A stretch of 64,000 bases of DNA from Escherichia coli (lineage in GTDB: Bacteria; Pseudomonadota; Gammaproteobacteria; Enterobacterales; Enterobacteriaceae). The notes under the pieces are model-generated. The model saw only the letters and a program-made list of their open reading frames with translations, was not told where the DNA came from and searched no databases. This document shows, one piece after another, positions 14,245-21,063 of the stretch (its first letter is position 1; every line of letters begins with the position of its first letter). A program made the position numbers and the translations under genes. The DNA is taken from NCBI RefSeq assembly GCF_041886205.1, contig NZ_CP169029.1. One strand, written 5' to 3'.

Positions 14245-15498
14245 ATGTCAGGATCCAACACTGCAATCAGCCGTCGTCGTTTACTGCAAGGCGCGGGTGC
14301 CATGTGGCTATTGAGCGTAAGTCAGGTCAGTCTGGCTGCGGTCAGCCAGGTCGTGGCGGTGCGCGTCTGGCCTGCGTCCAGCTACACCCGCGTGACGGTA
14401 GAATCAAATCGTCAGCTGAAATATAAGCAGTTCGCGTTGAGTAACCCGGAACGCGTGGTGGTGGATATCGAAGATGTAAACCTGAACTCGGTACTCAAGG
14501 GGATGGCGGCACAAATTCGTGCAGACGACCCGTTCATCAAGTCGGCGCGCGTCGGGCAATTTGACCCGCAAACCGTACGGATGGTTTTTGAATTAAAGCA
14601 AAACGTAAAACCGCAGCTGTTTGCCCTTGCGCCGGTCGCCGGGTTTAAAGAGCGTCTGGTGATGGACCTCTATCCGGCCAATGCACAGGATATGCAGGAC
14701 CCGCTGCTGGCGCTGCTGGAGGATTACAACAAAGGCGACCTCGAAAAGCAGGTGCCGCCAGCGCAAAGTGGTCCACAACCAGGTAAAGCAGGGCGCGATC
14801 GTCCGATTGTCATTATGCTTGACCCTGGCCACGGTGGCGAAGACTCCGGTGCGGTGGGGAAATACAAAACGCGCGAAAAAGACGTGGTATTGCAAATAGC
14901 TCGCCGTCTGCGCTCTCTGATCGAGAAAGAGGGCAATATGAAGGTGTACATGACGCGCAATGAAGACATCTTCATTCCGTTGCAAGTGCGCGTAGCAAAA
15001 GCCCAGAAACAGCGTGCTGACCTGTTTGTCTCTATCCATGCCGACGCCTTTACCAGTCGTCAGCCGAGCGGTTCCTCTGTGTTTGCGCTCTCAACCAAAG
15101 GTGCAACCAGTACTGCGGCAAAATATCTGGCACAAACCCAGAACGCCTCGGACTTGATTGGTGGCGTGAGCAAAAGCGGTGACCGCTATGTCGACCACAC
15201 CATGTTCGATATGGTGCAGTCGCTGACCATTGCTGACAGCCTTAAGTTTGGTAAAGCGGTACTGAATAAGCTCGGTAAAATCAACAAGCTGCATAAAAAT
15301 CAGGTTGAACAGGCCGGGTTTGCCGTACTAAAGGCACCAGATATTCCCTCCATTCTGGTCGAAACGGCGTTTATCAGTAACGTTGAGGAAGAGCGTAAAC
15401 TGAAAACGGCGACTTTCCAGCAGGAAGTTGCGGAGTCTATTCTTGCGGGAATTAAAGCGTATTTTGCCGATGGGGCGACGCTGGCGAGAAGGGGATGA
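14245..15498 (+). CDS. amiC: N-acetylmuramoyl-L-alanine amidase AmiC (417 aa, Tat signal)
   Basis: Internal ATG at 14245 (RBS gggagagg) gives [24 protein letters not shown]..., a twin-arginine signal; amidase_3 family; divergent from argA as in E. coli. Confidence 0.93.
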
Positions 15499-15507
15499 TG
15501 TTTTTAA

Positions 15508-15540
15508 TTTATTCAATGAATTTATGTTTCATTGAATAAA
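15508..15540. repeat. perfect 13-bp AT-rich inverted repeat (tttattcaatgaa / ttcattgaataaa, 7-nt loop) 10 bp after the amiC stop
   Basis: Read directly from sequence; lies at the left edge of the accessory island. Confidence 0.5.
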
Positions 15541-15689
15541 TATTATTTACATAAATGTTGAACGATGGTTTTGTGACTGCTGTCGAATATTTGAATATCG
15601 GCTTAAAAAATAAGCCTGTCATCTCTTTTATTAAGCACAATTCCGTGTAAGGTATACGCATTAGTTAATTATCTTGTAACTGTTAAATC

Positions 15690-15744
15690 AGGCAAGGCAA
15701 TGTTTGAAGTAATTATTACTTCTGACATGCCTTGCCTTTTTTTT
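15690..15744 (+). terminator. leader stem-loop plus U8 tract upstream of the antiterminator gene; candidate conditional (RAT-associated) terminator
   Basis: Outer stem aggcaaggca (15690-15699) pairs with tgccttgcct (15728-15737); inner palindrome gaagtaat-t-attacttc (15706-15722); followed by 8 T (15737-15744); ends 12 nt before RBS gggag and ATG 15757. Confidence 0.6.
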
Positions 15745-15756
15745 GGGAGCCATGGA

Positions 15757-16581
15757 ATGATCATCGAAAAAGTCATGAACAATAATTGTGTACAGGCATC
15801 GGTGAACGGACAGGAGGTTATCATTTCTGGGCCTGGCGTTGGTTACAATAAAAAATATGGTATGTCGGTCCCTGAGCATCCTGCAAACCGGATTTTTTAT
15901 GTCAGAAATGAGCAAAAAAATAAACTCTACAAATTGATTGAGCATGTGGGTATTGAGTATATTTTTGTTGCCGAAAAGATAGTGCATTATGCGGAGAGTA
16001 ATCTCGAAAAAAAACTCAATCCATCGCTACTACTGATTCTTGCTGATCACATTTCGAATGCAATATCCCGAGTCGTCTCAGGCATACAAATTAATAATGT
16101 TTTCCTTGAGGAAATCAAAGCGTTGTACAAAGCAGAGTATGCAATAAGTCGTGATGCATTAACAATCATTAATGAGCAATTTAGCGTTCAACTACCGGAT
16201 GATGAGATTGGTTTTATAGCATTGCATATTTTAAATAATTATGAAAATTCAGTTGATTATGAATCAGTAAGGATCATTGAGCTGTCTCAAAAAATCACGG
16301 AGCTTATTGAAGTTGTTTATAACAGAAGGGTGGACAGAAGTTCATTTAACTACTCCAGATTTATGATGCACCTTAAATATTTTTCTAGTCGTGTGTTATG
16401 TAATGAAAAAATAAAACAGAAAAATATTGGTGATATCTATGAGCAGTTTCTTGAAAAAGATTTTCAGTTACAACGTGCCATTCATGAAATTGAAAGATAT
16501 CTGTACGCAACTTTTAAATATGATTTGATTCTGGAAGAGAAACTATATCTTTCTATTCGCATCAAAGTATTAATGGACTAA
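15757..16581 (+). CDS. BglG/LicT-family transcriptional antiterminator (CAT RNA-binding domain + PRD domains), ~274 aa
   Basis: N-terminus MIIEKVMNNNCVQASVNGQEVIISGPGVGYNKK is the typical CAT-domain start; ATG 15757 is preferred over the track start 15700 because of RBS gggag and because 15700 lies inside the leader hairpin. Confidence 0.85.
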   Translation: MIIEKVMNNNCVQASVNGQEVIISGPGVGYNKKYGMSVPEHPANRIFYVRNEQKNKLYKLIEHVGIEYIFVAEKIVHYAESNLEKKLNPSLLLILADHISNAISRVVSGIQINNVFLEEIKALYKAEYAISRDALTIINEQFSVQLPDDEIGFIALHILNNYENSVDYESVRIIELSQKITELIEVVYNRRVDRSSFNYSRFMMHLKYFSSRVLCNEKIKQKNIGDIYEQFLEKDFQLQRAIHEIERYLYATFKYDLILEEKLYLSIRIKVLMD

Positions 16582-16612
16582 TTATACATAACATTTTCAT
16601 GAGATAACCAGT

Positions 16613-18193
16613 ATGAAACAAAAGAAAGCCTGGAGTTTTTTTCAGAGCCTGGGGAAGGCATTTATGTATCCCATCGCTCTGTTAAGTGTATGTGGTATGA
16701 TGTTAGGGCTGGGAAGTGGTTTAGCCAGCGATGATATGGGAAAATTCATTCCAGTGTTGGCTATTCCGTTAATTAAAACCATACTTGATTTTATTGTTAG
16801 CCTTGGTTTGTTTGCCTTCGTTAATTTACCTGTATTGTTTGCGATAGCTATACCTTTGGGATTATTAAAAGAGAAAGATGATAAAGCCTATGGCGCTTTT
16901 TCTGGCTTAATTGGCTTTATGGCGATGCATCTTGGAACGAACTTTTATCTTAAACAGCACGACTTATTGGTAGCTGCTGACCAAATGTCGACACATGGGC
17001 AAACCATCATACTCGGGATCCAGTCCTACAATACCAGCGTGTTGGGTGGGATTGTGGCAGGGTTATTAGTCGCCAGCATGTATAAAAAGATCGTTAACTT
17101 ACGTATTCCTGAATCATTAGGGTTTTATAGTGGCCCACGCCTTGTGCCTATCATTACACTGATTGTGATGAGTGGATTTGGTCTGTTCATTCCTTTTATC
17201 TGGCCGCCATTTTTCAATCTTTTCATGCTCATTGGTCACTGGATTTCAACTTCCGGTCCTGTTGGTTATTTCTTCTATGCTGTTGCCGAACGCGTGACGA
17301 TACCTTTTGGCTTAAATCACTTGGTGACATCAGTTTTCCGCTTTACCCCAATCGGCGGATCGGCAGTGATTGGCGGTGAAGAGTATTACGGCACCCTGAA
17401 CATGTTTATGGCATACGTCAAAGAGAATGCGGTCATTCCGCTGGATTTGGCGGGGAAAATGGAGCAGGGCAAACTGATGATTCAGTATGGTCTGGCTGGA
17501 GCCGCGCTGGCGATGTATCGCACTGCTCATGCTCAAAACAGAAGGGCTATCAAAGCATTGCTGATTTCCGGTGTGCTCACGGTAATTATTGGCGGCGTCA
17601 GCGAGCCGATTGAATTTCTGTTCTTATTTGTCAGCCCGCTGTTGTTTGTCTTCCATGCCTTTATGAATGGATTGGCTAACATGGTTCTGCCATATATGGG
17701 CGTGAAGATGGGCTTTACTGGCGATCTGATTCAATTTATTAGCTTTGGTGTCTTACGTGGCACAAGAACGGGATGGCCATTAGCGGTATGTGTTGAAGTG
17801 GCTTATTTCTTCATTTATTACTTTGTGTTCCGTTGGACCATTCTCAAATTTAACCTGATGACTGTAGGCCGTGAAGAGTCCAGTCCTGTCACGCTGAACG
17901 CTCACGAAGAAACTGCAATAGCTAACATCCCAGTTCATGATAAATCAGAGTTGCAGGCAGCGGAGCAAATGGTTAAGGCTCTGGGTGGTAAAGAAAATAT
18001 TAAATCACTGGATAATTGTGTAACTCGTTTGCGTTTAACTATCGCGGATATGGGATTGATAGATGAGGCTGCAATAAAAAGGGCCGGAGGAATTGCGGTT
18101 GTGAAACTTGATCAAAATACCTTACAAGTCATTATCGGTACAAAAGTCATCGCCCTACGTCGGGATATGGATAATTACATGGGGATATGTTGA
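16613..18193 (+). CDS. PTS system glucose-family EIICB component (MalX/PtsG-like), 526 aa, no EIIA domain
   Basis: Multi-span membrane domain followed by C-terminal EIIB with the cysteine motif NCVTRLRLTIADMG; N-terminus MKQKKAWSFFQSLGKAFMYPIALL resembles PtsG/MalX. Confidence 0.9.
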   Translation: MKQKKAWSFFQSLGKAFMYPIALLSVCGMMLGLGSGLASDDMGKFIPVLAIPLIKTILDFIVSLGLFAFVNLPVLFAIAIPLGLLKEKDDKAYGAFSGLIGFMAMHLGTNFYLKQHDLLVAADQMSTHGQTIILGIQSYNTSVLGGIVAGLLVASMYKKIVNLRIPESLGFYSGPRLVPIITLIVMSGFGLFIPFIWPPFFNLFMLIGHWISTSGPVGYFFYAVAERVTIPFGLNHLVTSVFRFTPIGGSAVIGGEEYYGTLNMFMAYVKENAVIPLDLAGKMEQGKLMIQYGLAGAALAMYRTAHAQNRRAIKALLISGVLTVIIGGVSEPIEFLFLFVSPLLFVFHAFMNGLANMVLPYMGVKMGFTGDLIQFISFGVLRGTRTGWPLAVCVEVAYFFIYYFVFRWTILKFNLMTVGREESSPVTLNAHEETAIANIPVHDKSELQAAEQMVKALGGKENIKSLDNCVTRLRLTIADMGLIDEAAIKRAGGIAVVKLDQNTLQVIIGTKVIALRRDMDNYMGIC

Positions 18194-19401
18194 TGGATAT
18201 TTTTAATACCTCAATTTCTCGTAAAGGAACATATTGCACACAATGGGACTTTTGTGAAGACAGATTTGGTGTAAAAGATGTATTACCATTCTCTATTTCA
18301 GATATGGATCTTCCGATACCGGAAGCTATCATCAGAACATTAAAAAAACGTCTGGAACACCCGATTTTAGGGTACAGTCGTTGGCAGCATGATGACTATC
18401 TGAATTCGATAGTCAATTGGTATCATCAACAATATAAAACAGAGATTCAACCAGAATGGATCACCTATAGCCCAAGCGTGATGTATTCAATATCTAAGGC
18501 AATAGAAATATTGACATTGAATGGAGATAATATTCTCATTTTCACGCCTGTTTATAACGCATTTTTTGATGTGATTAAGCATAATGGTCGAAACATGCTA
18601 ACAACCTCTTTGATGAAAGAAAATGGGAGAGGCTACGTTATCAACTGGCAAGACTTTGAGCTTAAAATTAAAAGCGCGAAGATGGTGTTATTATGTAATC
18701 CTCATAACCCGACAGGAACGGTCTGGTCGGAAGACGATCTTCACAGAATCGCAGCATGCTGTGCAAGGCATAATATTTGGTTATGTTCAGATGAAATACA
18801 TAGTGATTTTGTTTTTAATCATAGTTTCACGTCAGCGCTAACAATAAAAGATGACAAAGTGGTGGTGTTTAATTCGATTTCGAAAACATTTAATGTTCCT
18901 GCGCTAACCGGATCATATATGATTTCAACTGACGATAATTTTAATCATAAGTTCAGAACGATATCGAGGTATCGCGATTTCGTAAACTCCCCATCAGTAC
19001 TGAATGTAATTGCGACCATTGTTGCCTATAATGAATGTGAAGAATGGTTAAAGTCGTTAAAGGTACATATTGCCTCTAACATTCAATTTACTTTGCAGTA
19101 TTTAAATGAAAATATTCCGGAATTGATCGTATGGCCAGCTGAGGGCTGCTATTTTTCGTGGGTTGATTGCTCGGCCCTTGGTTATCCCTTTGATAAATTT
19201 TACCGTCGATTAATTAACGAAGGGAGAGTAGGTATTATGGCGGGGCATGTTTATGGTACTGAAGGAGAGGGCTATCTGCGTCTTAATCTGGCCTGCAGTC
19301 GAGAAAAATTATATATGGGGCTTGCGCGCCTTGCGAGTGTAATTAAAAATATTAATCAGGAAAAAGAAAATGAACAATACGGATCTTATCCATCTTATTA
19401 A
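18187..19401 (+). CDS. PLP-dependent aminotransferase class I/II fold protein, MalY/PatB-like cystathionine beta-lyase (C-S lyase), 404 aa
   Basis: N-terminal RKGTYCTQWDF...FGVKDVLPFSISDMDLP and the SISKTFN lysine motif are typical of MalY/PatB; start overlaps the PTS stop. Confidence 0.85.
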   Translation: MLMDIFNTSISRKGTYCTQWDFCEDRFGVKDVLPFSISDMDLPIPEAIIRTLKKRLEHPILGYSRWQHDDYLNSIVNWYHQQYKTEIQPEWITYSPSVMYSISKAIEILTLNGDNILIFTPVYNAFFDVIKHNGRNMLTTSLMKENGRGYVINWQDFELKIKSAKMVLLCNPHNPTGTVWSEDDLHRIAACCARHNIWLCSDEIHSDFVFNHSFTSALTIKDDKVVVFNSISKTFNVPALTGSYMISTDDNFNHKFRTISRYRDFVNSPSVLNVIATIVAYNECEEWLKSLKVHIASNIQFTLQYLNENIPELIVWPAEGCYFSWVDCSALGYPFDKFYRRLINEGRVGIMAGHVYGTEGEGYLRLNLACSREKLYMGLARLASVIKNINQEKENEQYGSYPSY

Positions 19402-19966
19402 ACGTTTTATGCGTAACGAACATAAAGCAGTAGAAGAGGTTATTGATTCCCCCCTTTCGGAAGTCGCGAATTTAATTAAAATATTACAATCTTGCCAGGG
19501 AAAAGTTGTTTTTATTGGTGTTGGGAAATCTGGCATTATTGCCAGAAAACTTGCTGCAACATTTGCCAGCACCGGAACTCCCTCGTTTTTTGTTCACGGT
19601 ACGGAAGCGGTACACGGCGACCTTGGGATGGTGGCGAAAGACGATGTTGTTATTCTTATTTCAAACAGTGGTGAGACGGCGGAAATCCTGGCGACACTGC
19701 CTAGTTTGAAAAAAATGGGTAATTATTTGATCTCTTTTACCCGCAGTCATCACTCATCGCTTGCGATAAGTTGTGATTTATCTGTTGAAATCCCCGTCAA
19801 AAGTGAGGCGGATAATTTAGGTTTAGCACCGTCATGCTCGTCTACTGTTGTTCTGGTTGTTGGTGATGCGGTGGCGCTTGCACTCTCTGAATTGAAAAAA
19901 TTTACTCGTGCTGATTTCGGCTTATATCATCCAGGAGGTGCACTCGGCATTAAAGCAAATTCATAA
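19370..19966 (+). CDS. single SIS-domain sugar-phosphate isomerase, KpsF/GutQ-like but lacking CBS domains (198 aa)
   Basis: VVFIGVGKSGIIARKLAATFASTGTPSFFVHGTEAVHGDLGMV...ILISNSGET matches the arabinose-5-phosphate isomerase SIS domain; overlaps the preceding gene by about 30 nt. Confidence 0.8.
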   Translation: MNNTDLIHLIKRFMRNEHKAVEEVIDSPLSEVANLIKILQSCQGKVVFIGVGKSGIIARKLAATFASTGTPSFFVHGTEAVHGDLGMVAKDDVVILISNSGETAEILATLPSLKKMGNYLISFTRSHHSSLAISCDLSVEIPVKSEADNLGLAPSCSSTVVLVVGDAVALALSELKKFTRADFGLYHPGGALGIKANS

Positions 19967-20037
19967 TTTCAAAGTATAAATACAGTAACCGGTCACGCCA
20001 TCTTTTGGGGTGGCGTTCATTGAAGTGAGTGTCAGCT

Positions 20038-20985
20038 ATGAAAAATGTTCTGGTCACCGTCCCCAACTTTTCAGCACGCTGTGTTTCCGCCAGCAAGTTG
20101 CTAAGAGAGAATAATTTTAATCTTATTATTAAGAATAATGTGGAGCATCTGCTTAAATCAGAATCCACTGCATTACGAGAATCTATTTGCGCGGTCATCG
20201 CCGGAAAAGATTGTTATCAGGCGGACACGCTATCATTGCTGCCTGGTGTGAAAATAATATCAAGATTCGGGACGGGGATAGATAATATTGATCTTCGTGC
20301 AGCACAACAATCCGGTATTGTAGTCAATAATGCGGTTGGGATTAATTCAAATGCTGTCGCGGAATTTATCATTGGACTTATCTTCGCGAGCATGAGAAAT
20401 ATTCCAGGCAGCTATCATGCGATGCAAAATGGCTACTGGGGTGAGTCGCATGGCTATGAATTACAAGGCAAACGGATTGGCATGGTTGGCTACGGCAATA
20501 TAGGTAAAACCCTGGCAAAAAGGTTATCCGGTTTTGATGTTGAGCTTTTAGCTTATGACAAACAACCCGATTATCAGGTTGCTGACAAAGTTGGAGTTCA
20601 GTTTGTATCAATTGAAGATATCTTTATGCAGTCGCATGTCATCATTGTTCTTTTGCCTTTTTCTCCTGAGCTGGAGAACTTCATTAGTCATAAATATTTG
20701 TCGATGATGCGCAATGGTGCTCTAATCATCAATGCCGCAAGGGGAAAGTTGCTGGATGAGGGCGCTTTACTACAGGTGATTGAAGAACGAAATGTGTTTG
20801 CGGCGCTGGATGTGTTTAGCTCTGAACCGTTGGCGCAATTTAGCCCACTGCTACATGCCAAAAATATCATTACAACGCCGCATATTGCGGCCGCCACCGT
20901 TGAGTCATACCAGCAAACCGGTACACACGTTGCCCAGTCGATAATTGATTACTTCGCAGGAAGGGAGATAAAAAACGTGTTGTGA
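20038..20985 (+). CDS. D-isomer-specific 2-hydroxyacid dehydrogenase family NAD-binding protein (~315 aa)
   Basis: Rossmann motif GKRIGMVGYGNIGKTLAKRL and the family pattern ...LLPFSPELENFIS...; ATG 20038 preferred over the GTG at 20029 (uncertain). Confidence 0.8.
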   Translation: MKNVLVTVPNFSARCVSASKLLRENNFNLIIKNNVEHLLKSESTALRESICAVIAGKDCYQADTLSLLPGVKIISRFGTGIDNIDLRAAQQSGIVVNNAVGINSNAVAEFIIGLIFASMRNIPGSYHAMQNGYWGESHGYELQGKRIGMVGYGNIGKTLAKRLSGFDVELLAYDKQPDYQVADKVGVQFVSIEDIFMQSHVIIVLLPFSPELENFISHKYLSMMRNGALIINAARGKLLDEGALLQVIEERNVFAALDVFSSEPLAQFSPLLHAKNIITTPHIAAATVESYQQTGTHVAQSIIDYFAGREIKNVL

Positions 20986-21011
20986 GTTCAGCGAACGAAG
21001 TTTTTAAATAC

Positions 21012-21047
21012 AAAAAAACCGCAATTTGTGGAACACATTGCGGTTTA
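21012..21047 (-). terminator. rho-independent terminator of the tRNA-fMet operon (8-bp GC-containing stem followed by U7 on the minus strand)
   Basis: Stem accgcaat (21018-21025) pairs with attgcggt (21037-21044); the plus-strand A7 at 21012-21018 reads as U7 after the hairpin on the minus strand; 17 bp from the metV 3' end. Confidence 0.7.
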
Positions 21048-21063
21048 TCAGCATTCTAAGTAT

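Follow-up and report, generated by a model that had tools for sequence, protein, structure and literature searches.

A predicted antitermination switch of the BglG/SacY type in the leader of the Escherichia coli paf operon

How is a sugar operon carried on an accessory island of Escherichia coli kept off, and what would turn it on? The question is raised here by the paf locus in a 64,000-nucleotide stretch (the window) of contig NZ_CP169029.1 (assembly GCF_041886205.1), in which the genes recB-recD, argA and amiC are followed, directly after the amiC stop codon, by a 5.5-kb segment of low GC content. Its five co-oriented genes encode a CAT-PRD antiterminator, a MalX-like EIICB permease of the phosphotransferase system (PTS), a C-S lyase, an SIS isomerase and a 2-hydroxyacid dehydrogenase. 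In the literature this segment is described as the c3405-c3410 cluster of PAI-CFT073-metV from the uropathogenic E. coli (UPEC) strain CFT073 (PMC2831201), and its first two genes, pafR and pafP, have been reported as needed for full fitness of that strain in the mouse urinary tract (Baum et al. 2014, as cited in PMC8882828). Within the leader between amiC and pafR, positions 15671-15744 are read here as the cis switch of the operon, a BglG/SacY-type ribonucleic antiterminator (RAT) that overlaps an intrinsic terminator, and we put the probability of this reading at roughly 0.8. The paf leader is thereby predicted to be a standard BglG/SacY-type sugar-operon switch in a published Bgl-like system, on an accessory E. 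coli island linked to urinary-tract virulence.

The RAT is recognizable from its core. The pattern TTGTWACTG-N(3-9)-CAGGCAAR has a single match in the window, at 15674-15696, with 0 expected by chance, and a scan of the window for additional paf RAT cores that tolerated 3 mismatches turned up none. The canonical references were read from DNA: K-12 bgl t1 (GGAUUGUUACUGCAUUCGCAGGCAAAACC), bgl t2 and the three RATs of a licT-PTS locus in Clostridium tertium. The paf 29-mer (Table 1) fits the UUGU(U/A)ACUG...CAGGCAA core of these elements. Its hairpin pairs positions 4-25, 5-24 and 6-23 in the central stem, 7-22 above it, and 10-21, 11-20 and 12-19 in the top stem, with A8 and A9 bulged in the upper internal loop (7-9 versus 22). 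All of these pairs are possible and are shared, together with the 8-9 bulge, with both bgl and all three C. tertium RATs, and RNAfold gives the 29-mer alone the expected RAT fold at -6.3 kcal/mol. An earlier model-made note written from the letters of this DNA alone (the sequence-only reading) had predicted that a RAT would overlap the 5' arm of a leader terminator. The element is present, and comparison of that arm with RAT consensus sequences shows that the last 10 nt of the RAT, positions 20-29 (15690-15699), are the outer 5' arm of the terminator, an overlap of 10 nt. When the RAT pairs are enforced, no stem is left beside the U tract and the total energy moves from -32.2 to -21.5 kcal/mol; the only structure remaining near the U tract is an inner hairpin that ends 9 nt before the U residues. 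The shared bases and the enforced-pair fold therefore indicate that the two folds are mutually exclusive and that the terminator is the default, which is the canonical logic of the family (PMC3575810).

The terminator itself is an interrupted hairpin of 21 pairs. Its 10-bp outer stem pairs AGGCAAGGCA (15690-15699) with TGCCTTGCCT (15728-15737) and encloses the inner palindrome GAAGTAAT-T-ATTACTTC at 15706-15722. Both elements, and the T run behind them, had been picked out in the sequence-only reading and are all present; an additional 4-bp stem, UGUU (15701-15704) with GACA (15724-15727), was absent from it. Two details of that description need adjustment. The run does consist of eight T residues as stated, of which the first closes the stem and 7 are unpaired, and the 12 nt that had been placed between the run and the ribosome-binding site (RBS) is the distance from the end of the run to the ATG at 15757, the run itself adjoining the Shine-Dalgarno sequence GGGAG. 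Folding of 15660-15760 yields the terminator hairpin as the dominant structure, and RNAfold assigns -28.0 kcal/mol to 15690-15745, compared with -8.7 +/- 2.5 kcal/mol for 200 shuffled sequences (z = -7.8), with 0/200 equally good. A consensus terminator scan that needs an uninterrupted stem and a loop of 3-8 nt did not list the leader hairpin because its stem is interrupted by a bulge and a U/U mismatch; this omission follows from the definition used in the scan and is no evidence against the hairpin. In Rfam 15, searched with permissive thresholds over 15000-17000, chance matches to snoRNA and miRNA families (E > 3) were the only hits and no RAT-type family appeared. Taken on its sequence, the leader hairpin is predicted to be a genuine transcription stop signal.

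Conservation of the leader was followed in orthologs that had been found by protein search (76-94% identity), with the RNA playing no part in their retrieval; the set covers E. whittamii, a divergent E. coli, two species of Citrobacter, Atlantibacter hermannii and a number of metagenome contigs. All 5 species-representative genomes from the protein search, and every ortholog contig, have RAT, hairpin and U tract together at a distance of 83-85 nt from the start codon, and the T tract is retained throughout. In the metagenome collection, exact matches to the RAT core precede a pafR-type gene in 7 of 7 cases, with terminator and U tract present at the same distance, and occur nowhere else. Among nine distinct leaders the core (15673-15696) varies at 1 of 24 sites, by an A8 to C change in Atlantibacter, compared with 30/54 sites just upstream of the RAT and 12/28 in the terminator interior. 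In the terminator it is the pairing that is kept: RNAalifold of the nine orthologous leaders gives 17 consensus pairs, 0 of them broken and 2 showing compensatory G-C to A-U changes, and all 153 of 153 cells are paired (100%), compared with 34-57% after a shift of the 3' partners by 1-3 columns. One of the compensatory pairs involves RAT position 27, where G to A is accompanied by C to U in the 3' arm; the new base still fits U2 in the RAT fold. The Atlantibacter terminator has its middle rebuilt into a continuous 21-bp stem of similar energy. With few lineages the statistics are modest, and the pattern is as predicted for a protein-bound RAT joined to a structural terminator.

The gene behind this leader encodes a plausible partner. 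The sequence-only reading had placed the hairpin directly upstream of a BglG-family antiterminator gene, and the downstream product is indeed a CAT-PRD1-PRD2 protein: precomputed Pfam domains are PF03123 (CAT_RBD) and PF00874 (PRD), and the protein aligns to the LicT structures 1TLV (PRD1-PRD2), 6TWR (CAT-PRD1) and 1L1C. Against NCBIfam it scores 230.5 bits with the LicT model (residues 1-270; cut-off 300), 181.8 with GlcT (320) and 104.7 with BglG (322). Because all of these scores lie below the equivalog cut-offs, PafR is classed as a member of the BglG/SacY family and not as an ortholog of LicT, GlcT or BglG. Its closest relatives from beyond the enterobacterial clade are LicT-like proteins of clostridia, at ~36% identity. 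In the CAT domain of LicT, the RNA is contacted by residues 5-10, G26, R27, F31 and Q32 (PMC3105407). PafR conserves the basic K5-N10 stretch and G25, and at two known specificity positions it has P26 (LicT R27) and N31 (LicT Q32), a set of residues that appears compatible with RNA binding of altered specificity. In the PRDs, the phosphorylatable H100, H159 and H207 of LicT have invariant counterparts in H98, H157 and H205. At the position of the fourth histidine (LicT H269), all PafR orthologs have Arg (codon 267, 16555-16557), K-12 BglG has Asn and the clostridial relatives have His; the Arg suggests that HPr-dependent activation differs from the LicT scheme.

From these parts a switch can be proposed. 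We infer that transcription would start upstream of 15671, possibly from the promoter whose candidate -10 hexamer is listed in Table 1. By default, the nascent RNA would fold into the 15690-15737 hairpin and polymerase would be released in the U tract, ahead of the pafR RBS. While PafP, the MalX-like EIICB and presumed sensor that phosphorylates PRD1 of the antiterminator, is transporting its substrate, PafR would no longer be phosphorylated there. The protein would then dimerise and its CAT domain would clamp the weak RAT hairpin (-6 kcal/mol), sequestering RAT positions 20-29 and with them the whole outer 5' arm of the terminator. The inner hairpin at 15701-15727 would be all that could form, 9 nt from the U tract and unable to terminate, and polymerase would continue through pafR, pafP and the genes for the three enzymes. 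The only RAT and terminator precede pafR, and the pafR stop codon is followed after 31 nt by the pafP start with no RAT between them; read-through should therefore raise the regulator as well, giving positive autoregulation, which would need some basal read-through to start. Conditional antitermination with autoregulation, the prediction of the sequence-only reading, thus gains support from comparative evidence as well as from the sequence. Its value is practical: a concrete and testable explanation for the off and on states of the operon, a set of bases (15690-15744) to remove from reporters in order to see the paf promoter, and a defined RNA ligand with which to seek the inducing sugar and the specificity of PafR. 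For antitermination biology, nothing in it is mechanistically new beyond the variant lower half of the RAT.

That lower half heads the observations that weigh against the switch as proposed. The element is a variant and not a textbook RAT, since it has neither a basal stem of two or more G-C pairs (1-29, 2-28) nor the asymmetric internal loop 1 above it. The G1G2/C28C29 basal stem is replaced by A1U2/C28A29, with A1/A29 and U2/C28 unpairable in any ortholog, and loop 1 (A3 versus A26 and A27) is replaced by C3/G26/R27, position 27 being G or A. These bases can pair as C3-G26 and U2-R27, giving a continuous stem, or as C3-G27 with G26 bulged. Since LicT contacts both internal loops of its RAT (PMC3105407), the binding mode of PafR on such a non-canonical lower half may differ. 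The near-invariance of the RAT also means that covariation cannot support its fold. In the protein, a Phe that is strictly conserved across the family (LicT F31) is replaced by Tyr (Y30) in the CAT domain. Upstream of the RAT, no sigma-70 consensus match of at least 9/12 was found on the plus strand, and the paf promoter is therefore probably weak or activator-dependent. Finally, in the work of Baum and colleagues PafR can reportedly antiterminate while its targets in UPEC are said to be unknown, and the paf promoter is said to be silent in vitro. If this is correct, the leader element is the obvious first target of PafR and a likely contributor to the silence of the promoter, alongside probable silencing of the AT-rich paf DNA by H-NS.

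Could the hairpin instead be a plain, unregulated terminator that insulates the island from amiC read-through, the RAT-like sequence being a vestige? The lack of a canonical basal stem in the RAT would suit such a reading, as would the geography of the locus: the island follows the amiC stop codon directly and takes the place of the K-12 amiC-metV spacer, terminator included, so that amiC transcripts probably run into the leader hairpin. Yet in Citrobacter-like contigs the cassette sits at another chromosomal site, behind an LTXXQ-family gene and not behind amiC, and the RAT and terminator still precede it. Because the element travels with the operon, the hairpin is assigned to the operon, not to amiC. 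A vestige would also not be expected to keep a core as constant as the one described above while more than half of the flanking sites change, and we regard an insulator as quite improbable. A little more room can be given to the idea that the RAT is real and is served mainly by another antiterminator, for example through cross-talk from BglG, or that PafR acts chiefly on other RATs, though this too seems improbable. Cross-talk of BglG/SacY-family proteins with non-cognate RATs is documented (PMC1635312, PMC3105407), and the upper half of the paf RAT pairs identically to the bgl RATs. The specificity positions 3, 8, 26 and 27 nevertheless read C, A, G and G/A in paf against A, U, A and A in bgl, bgl is cryptic in K-12-like strains, and the RAT is strictly linked to pafR in every genome and metagenome contig examined, the seven exact-core metagenome matches included.

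The last alternative places the hairpin within coding sequence, with a start at ATG 15700 that would yield a 293-aa protein or a leader peptide and make the control translational. This ATG is in frame with the gene, no stop codon intervenes, and AAGG lies 2 nt upstream. The orthologs speak differently, as Atlantibacter, two leaders of Citrobacter type and leader L009 have ACG or AGG at this position. All homologues have 274 aa and begin MIIEKVMNNN, in alignment with the N-terminus of the family; GGAG is invariant among the orthologs 7 nt before the ATG at 15757; and the coding-sequence start annotated by the Prokaryotic Genome Annotation Pipeline (PGAP) is the position equivalent to 15757. The N-terminal extension was rejected on these grounds, in agreement with the sequence-only reading, which had doubted ATG 15700 as the real start, and translational control by this route has hardly any likelihood. 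The reading that is left in the lead is the RAT/terminator switch operated by PafR.

Within that reading, a bolder proposal is offered tentatively, as less likely than not: that the paf RAT represents a structurally distinct RAT subclass, with no GG/CC clamp, a C3-G26/U2-R27 stem and a divergent CAT domain (P26, Y30, N31) as its counterpart, which together might form an antitermination channel of E. coli insulated from BglG, the leader of PafR's own operon being its primary target. The bases at positions 3, 8, 26 and 27, with P26, Y30 and N31 of the CAT domain, suggest a private specificity. Were the proposal true, a terminator placed inside a positive-feedback loop could account both for the reported promoter silence and for a target that is reportedly described as unknown. 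A 2025 review of RNA-binding antiterminators does not include PafR and its RAT.

The closest relative in the same species is the K-12 bgl system. As in bgl t1 of BglG/BglF, a 29-nt RAT overlaps the terminator in the leader of the antiterminator's own gene, which is followed by a PTS permease gene, and both antiterminators have a CAT-PRD1-PRD2 architecture with three conserved histidines and without the fourth, which is N in BglG and R in PafR. The surroundings are AT-rich in both cases and the paf operon is probably silent like bgl, which is silenced by H-NS (PMC12591593). Differences are also evident. In bgl a second RAT/terminator, t2, lies between bglG and bglF; PafR is only 26% identical to BglG, and the LicT and GlcT models score higher; the paf RAT lacks the GG/CC stem, has C3/G26/R27 instead of A3/A26/A27 and overlaps its terminator by 10 nt. 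The permease is a glucose/maltose-family EIICB in paf and a beta-glucoside EIIBCA in bgl, and the enzymes are a C-S lyase, an SIS isomerase and a dehydrogenase as opposed to a phospho-beta-glucosidase. The layout also resembles nagY-nagE of Enterococcus faecalis (PMC9981650), in which a single RAT overlaps a rho-independent terminator before an autoregulated antiterminator gene that is followed by a PTS permease gene. There, too, the terminator is kept by compensatory changes and the RAT has in part low similarity to the consensus (PMC9981650). For nagY-nagE, the transcription start, RNA binding (Kd about 4 nM) and induction have been measured (PMC9981650). NagY also controls the unlinked hylA; for paf, neither the window nor the metagenome scan yielded a second copy of the RAT core.

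The RATs of B. subtilis SacY/sacB, SacT/sacPA and LicT/licS-bglPH agree with the paf element in their core and in how the upper loop and top stem fold. At the top of the paf RAT, the loop UUAAAU is a UAAA tetraloop flanked by U13 and U18, and a UAAA tetraloop is described for sacB and sacPA by Schilling et al. Position 26 is G, as in sacB, and the specificity residues of PafR combine the P26 of SacT with the N31 of SacY. With the B. subtilis sequences reconstructed from statements in the literature, position 3 is C in paf compared with U in sacB and A in licS and sacPA, and position 8 is A or C compared with U or G. Unlike the B. subtilis RATs, the paf element is without a G-C basal stem. Its overlap of 10 nt exceeds the 5-9 nt of LicT and SacY targets and falls within the 9-15 nt of GlcT targets (PMC3575810); the GlcT RAT needs two symmetrical triple-base loops (PMC1635312). 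A glucose-family PTS partner and a long RAT/terminator overlap are features shared with B. subtilis GlcT/ptsG, and the GlcT model is the second-best NCBIfam match of PafR, at 182 bits. In B. subtilis the RAT/terminator sits between glcT and ptsG and, unlike pafR in the scheme proposed here, glcT is not known to be autoregulated.

Table 1. Positions of the paf leader elements and of the genes downstream in the window.
Feature	Position	Strand	Basis or remark
Candidate -10 hexamer TAAGGT of the operon promoter (low confidence)	15648-15653	+	T-A-n-n-n-T conserved
RAT (ribonucleic antiterminator), 29-mer AUCUUGUAACUGUUAAAUCAGGCAAGGCA	15671-15699	+	Core pattern, pairing, conservation
Intrinsic terminator hairpin (predicted)	15690-15737	+	10 bp, bulged A, 4 bp, U/U mismatch, 7 bp, 3-nt loop
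T (U) tract of the terminator	15737-15744	+	8 T, read from sequence; 9 T in most other alleles
Shine-Dalgarno sequence GGGAG of pafR	15745-15749	+	Read from sequence; abuts the T tract
pafR-type BglG/SacY-family antiterminator gene, 274 aa, CAT-PRD1-PRD2	15757-16581	+	NCBIfam, Pfam, structure alignment, PGAP start
pafP-type PTS EIICB permease gene, glucose/maltose (MalX-like) family	16613-18193	+	TIGR02004 PTS-IIBC-malX, 538 bits, full length
Genes for PatB/MalY-family C-S lyase, SIS-only KpsF/GutQ-like isomerase and 2-hydroxyacid (PGDH-like) dehydrogenase	18187-20985	+	Profile assignments

Upstream of the RAT, the candidate -10 hexamer is a low-confidence guess made from conservation only: its T-A-n-n-n-T pattern is kept in 9/9 lineages (as TAAGGT, TAATGT, TAGGGT or TACAGT), and the adjacent TATACG is not kept. 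A CRP-like sequence, TGTGA-N6-TCGAA, at 15572-15587, ~80 nt upstream of the presumed start, looked promising in three lineages. Across nine lineages its left half is kept in Escherichia and Atlantibacter and reads TGTGG or TGAGG in Citrobacter, and its right half is variable; no CRP site is claimed. A small hairpin, GGCTTA-AAAAA-TAAGCC, lies at 15600-15616, upstream of the candidate promoter; it is kept in Escherichia alleles (GGCTTG...TAAGCC in EC958) and not in Citrobacter or Atlantibacter. In E. coli strain ES7 (L027:2300-3510), an IS5-like insertion sequence (IS) of the ISEc68 family has entered the leader at TTAG, with duplication of the TTAG target. The insertion point corresponds to 15661-15664 of the window, 7 nt upstream of the RAT and between the candidate -10 and the RAT. 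Such a leader insertion was seen in 1 of 1676 island-positive genomes and is reminiscent of the IS insertions by which the cryptic bgl operon is activated.

The island segment as a whole has a GC content of 0.29-0.47, compared with ~0.53 in the flanks; it replaces the short amiC-metV spacer of K-12 and ends at three initiator tRNA-Met genes. The cluster is present in 1676-1685 of 5426 complete E. coli genomes (~31%), in two leader alleles: one of at least 99% identity to the window in 261 genomes and one of ~93% in 1415, including EC958 of sequence type 131 (ST131). The five-gene order is identical in EC958, Atlantibacter and the Citrobacter-like contigs. The nearest non-enterobacterial relatives of the cassette are clostridial, which fits its low GC content. 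The SIS protein (19370-19966) matches only the N-terminal SIS half of KpsF/GutQ/KdsD (~36-201 of 328) and is without the CBS pair. In the Citrobacter-type contigs (L005:8001-13240 and L008), the cassette and its leader lie between the LTXXQ-family gene and dnaQ/rnhA, with no integrase or IS nearby. In EC958 (L007:12725-14209), the paf cassette is followed by type VI secretion genes (for a VasL-domain protein and tssE), whereas in the window the tRNA-Met genes follow directly; the cassette is therefore a separable module of a larger metV island. In E. coli strain PT62 (L001:14795-18120), two IS1 copies disrupt the C-S lyase and SIS genes behind a leader 99.9% identical to that of the window, which indicates that the distal paf genes are decaying in some lineages.

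Both edges of the island carry inverted repeats. At the left edge, 10 nt past the amiC stop codon, a perfect 13-bp AT-rich repeat, TTTATTCAATGAA-N7-TTCATTGAATAAA, occupies 15508-15540, and the EC958 allele has it in degraded form; possible interpretations are a weak terminator for amiC, a site for protein binding or a remnant of the island end. At the right edge, the hairpin ACCGCAAT...ATTGCGGT at 21011-21048 is preceded by A7. Read on the minus strand, this hairpin has the form of an intrinsic terminator serving the metZWV tRNA operon, and it may double as the end of the paf operon; the equivalent place in K-12 holds a different hairpin, CACCC-GTTA-GGGTG, with the same A7.

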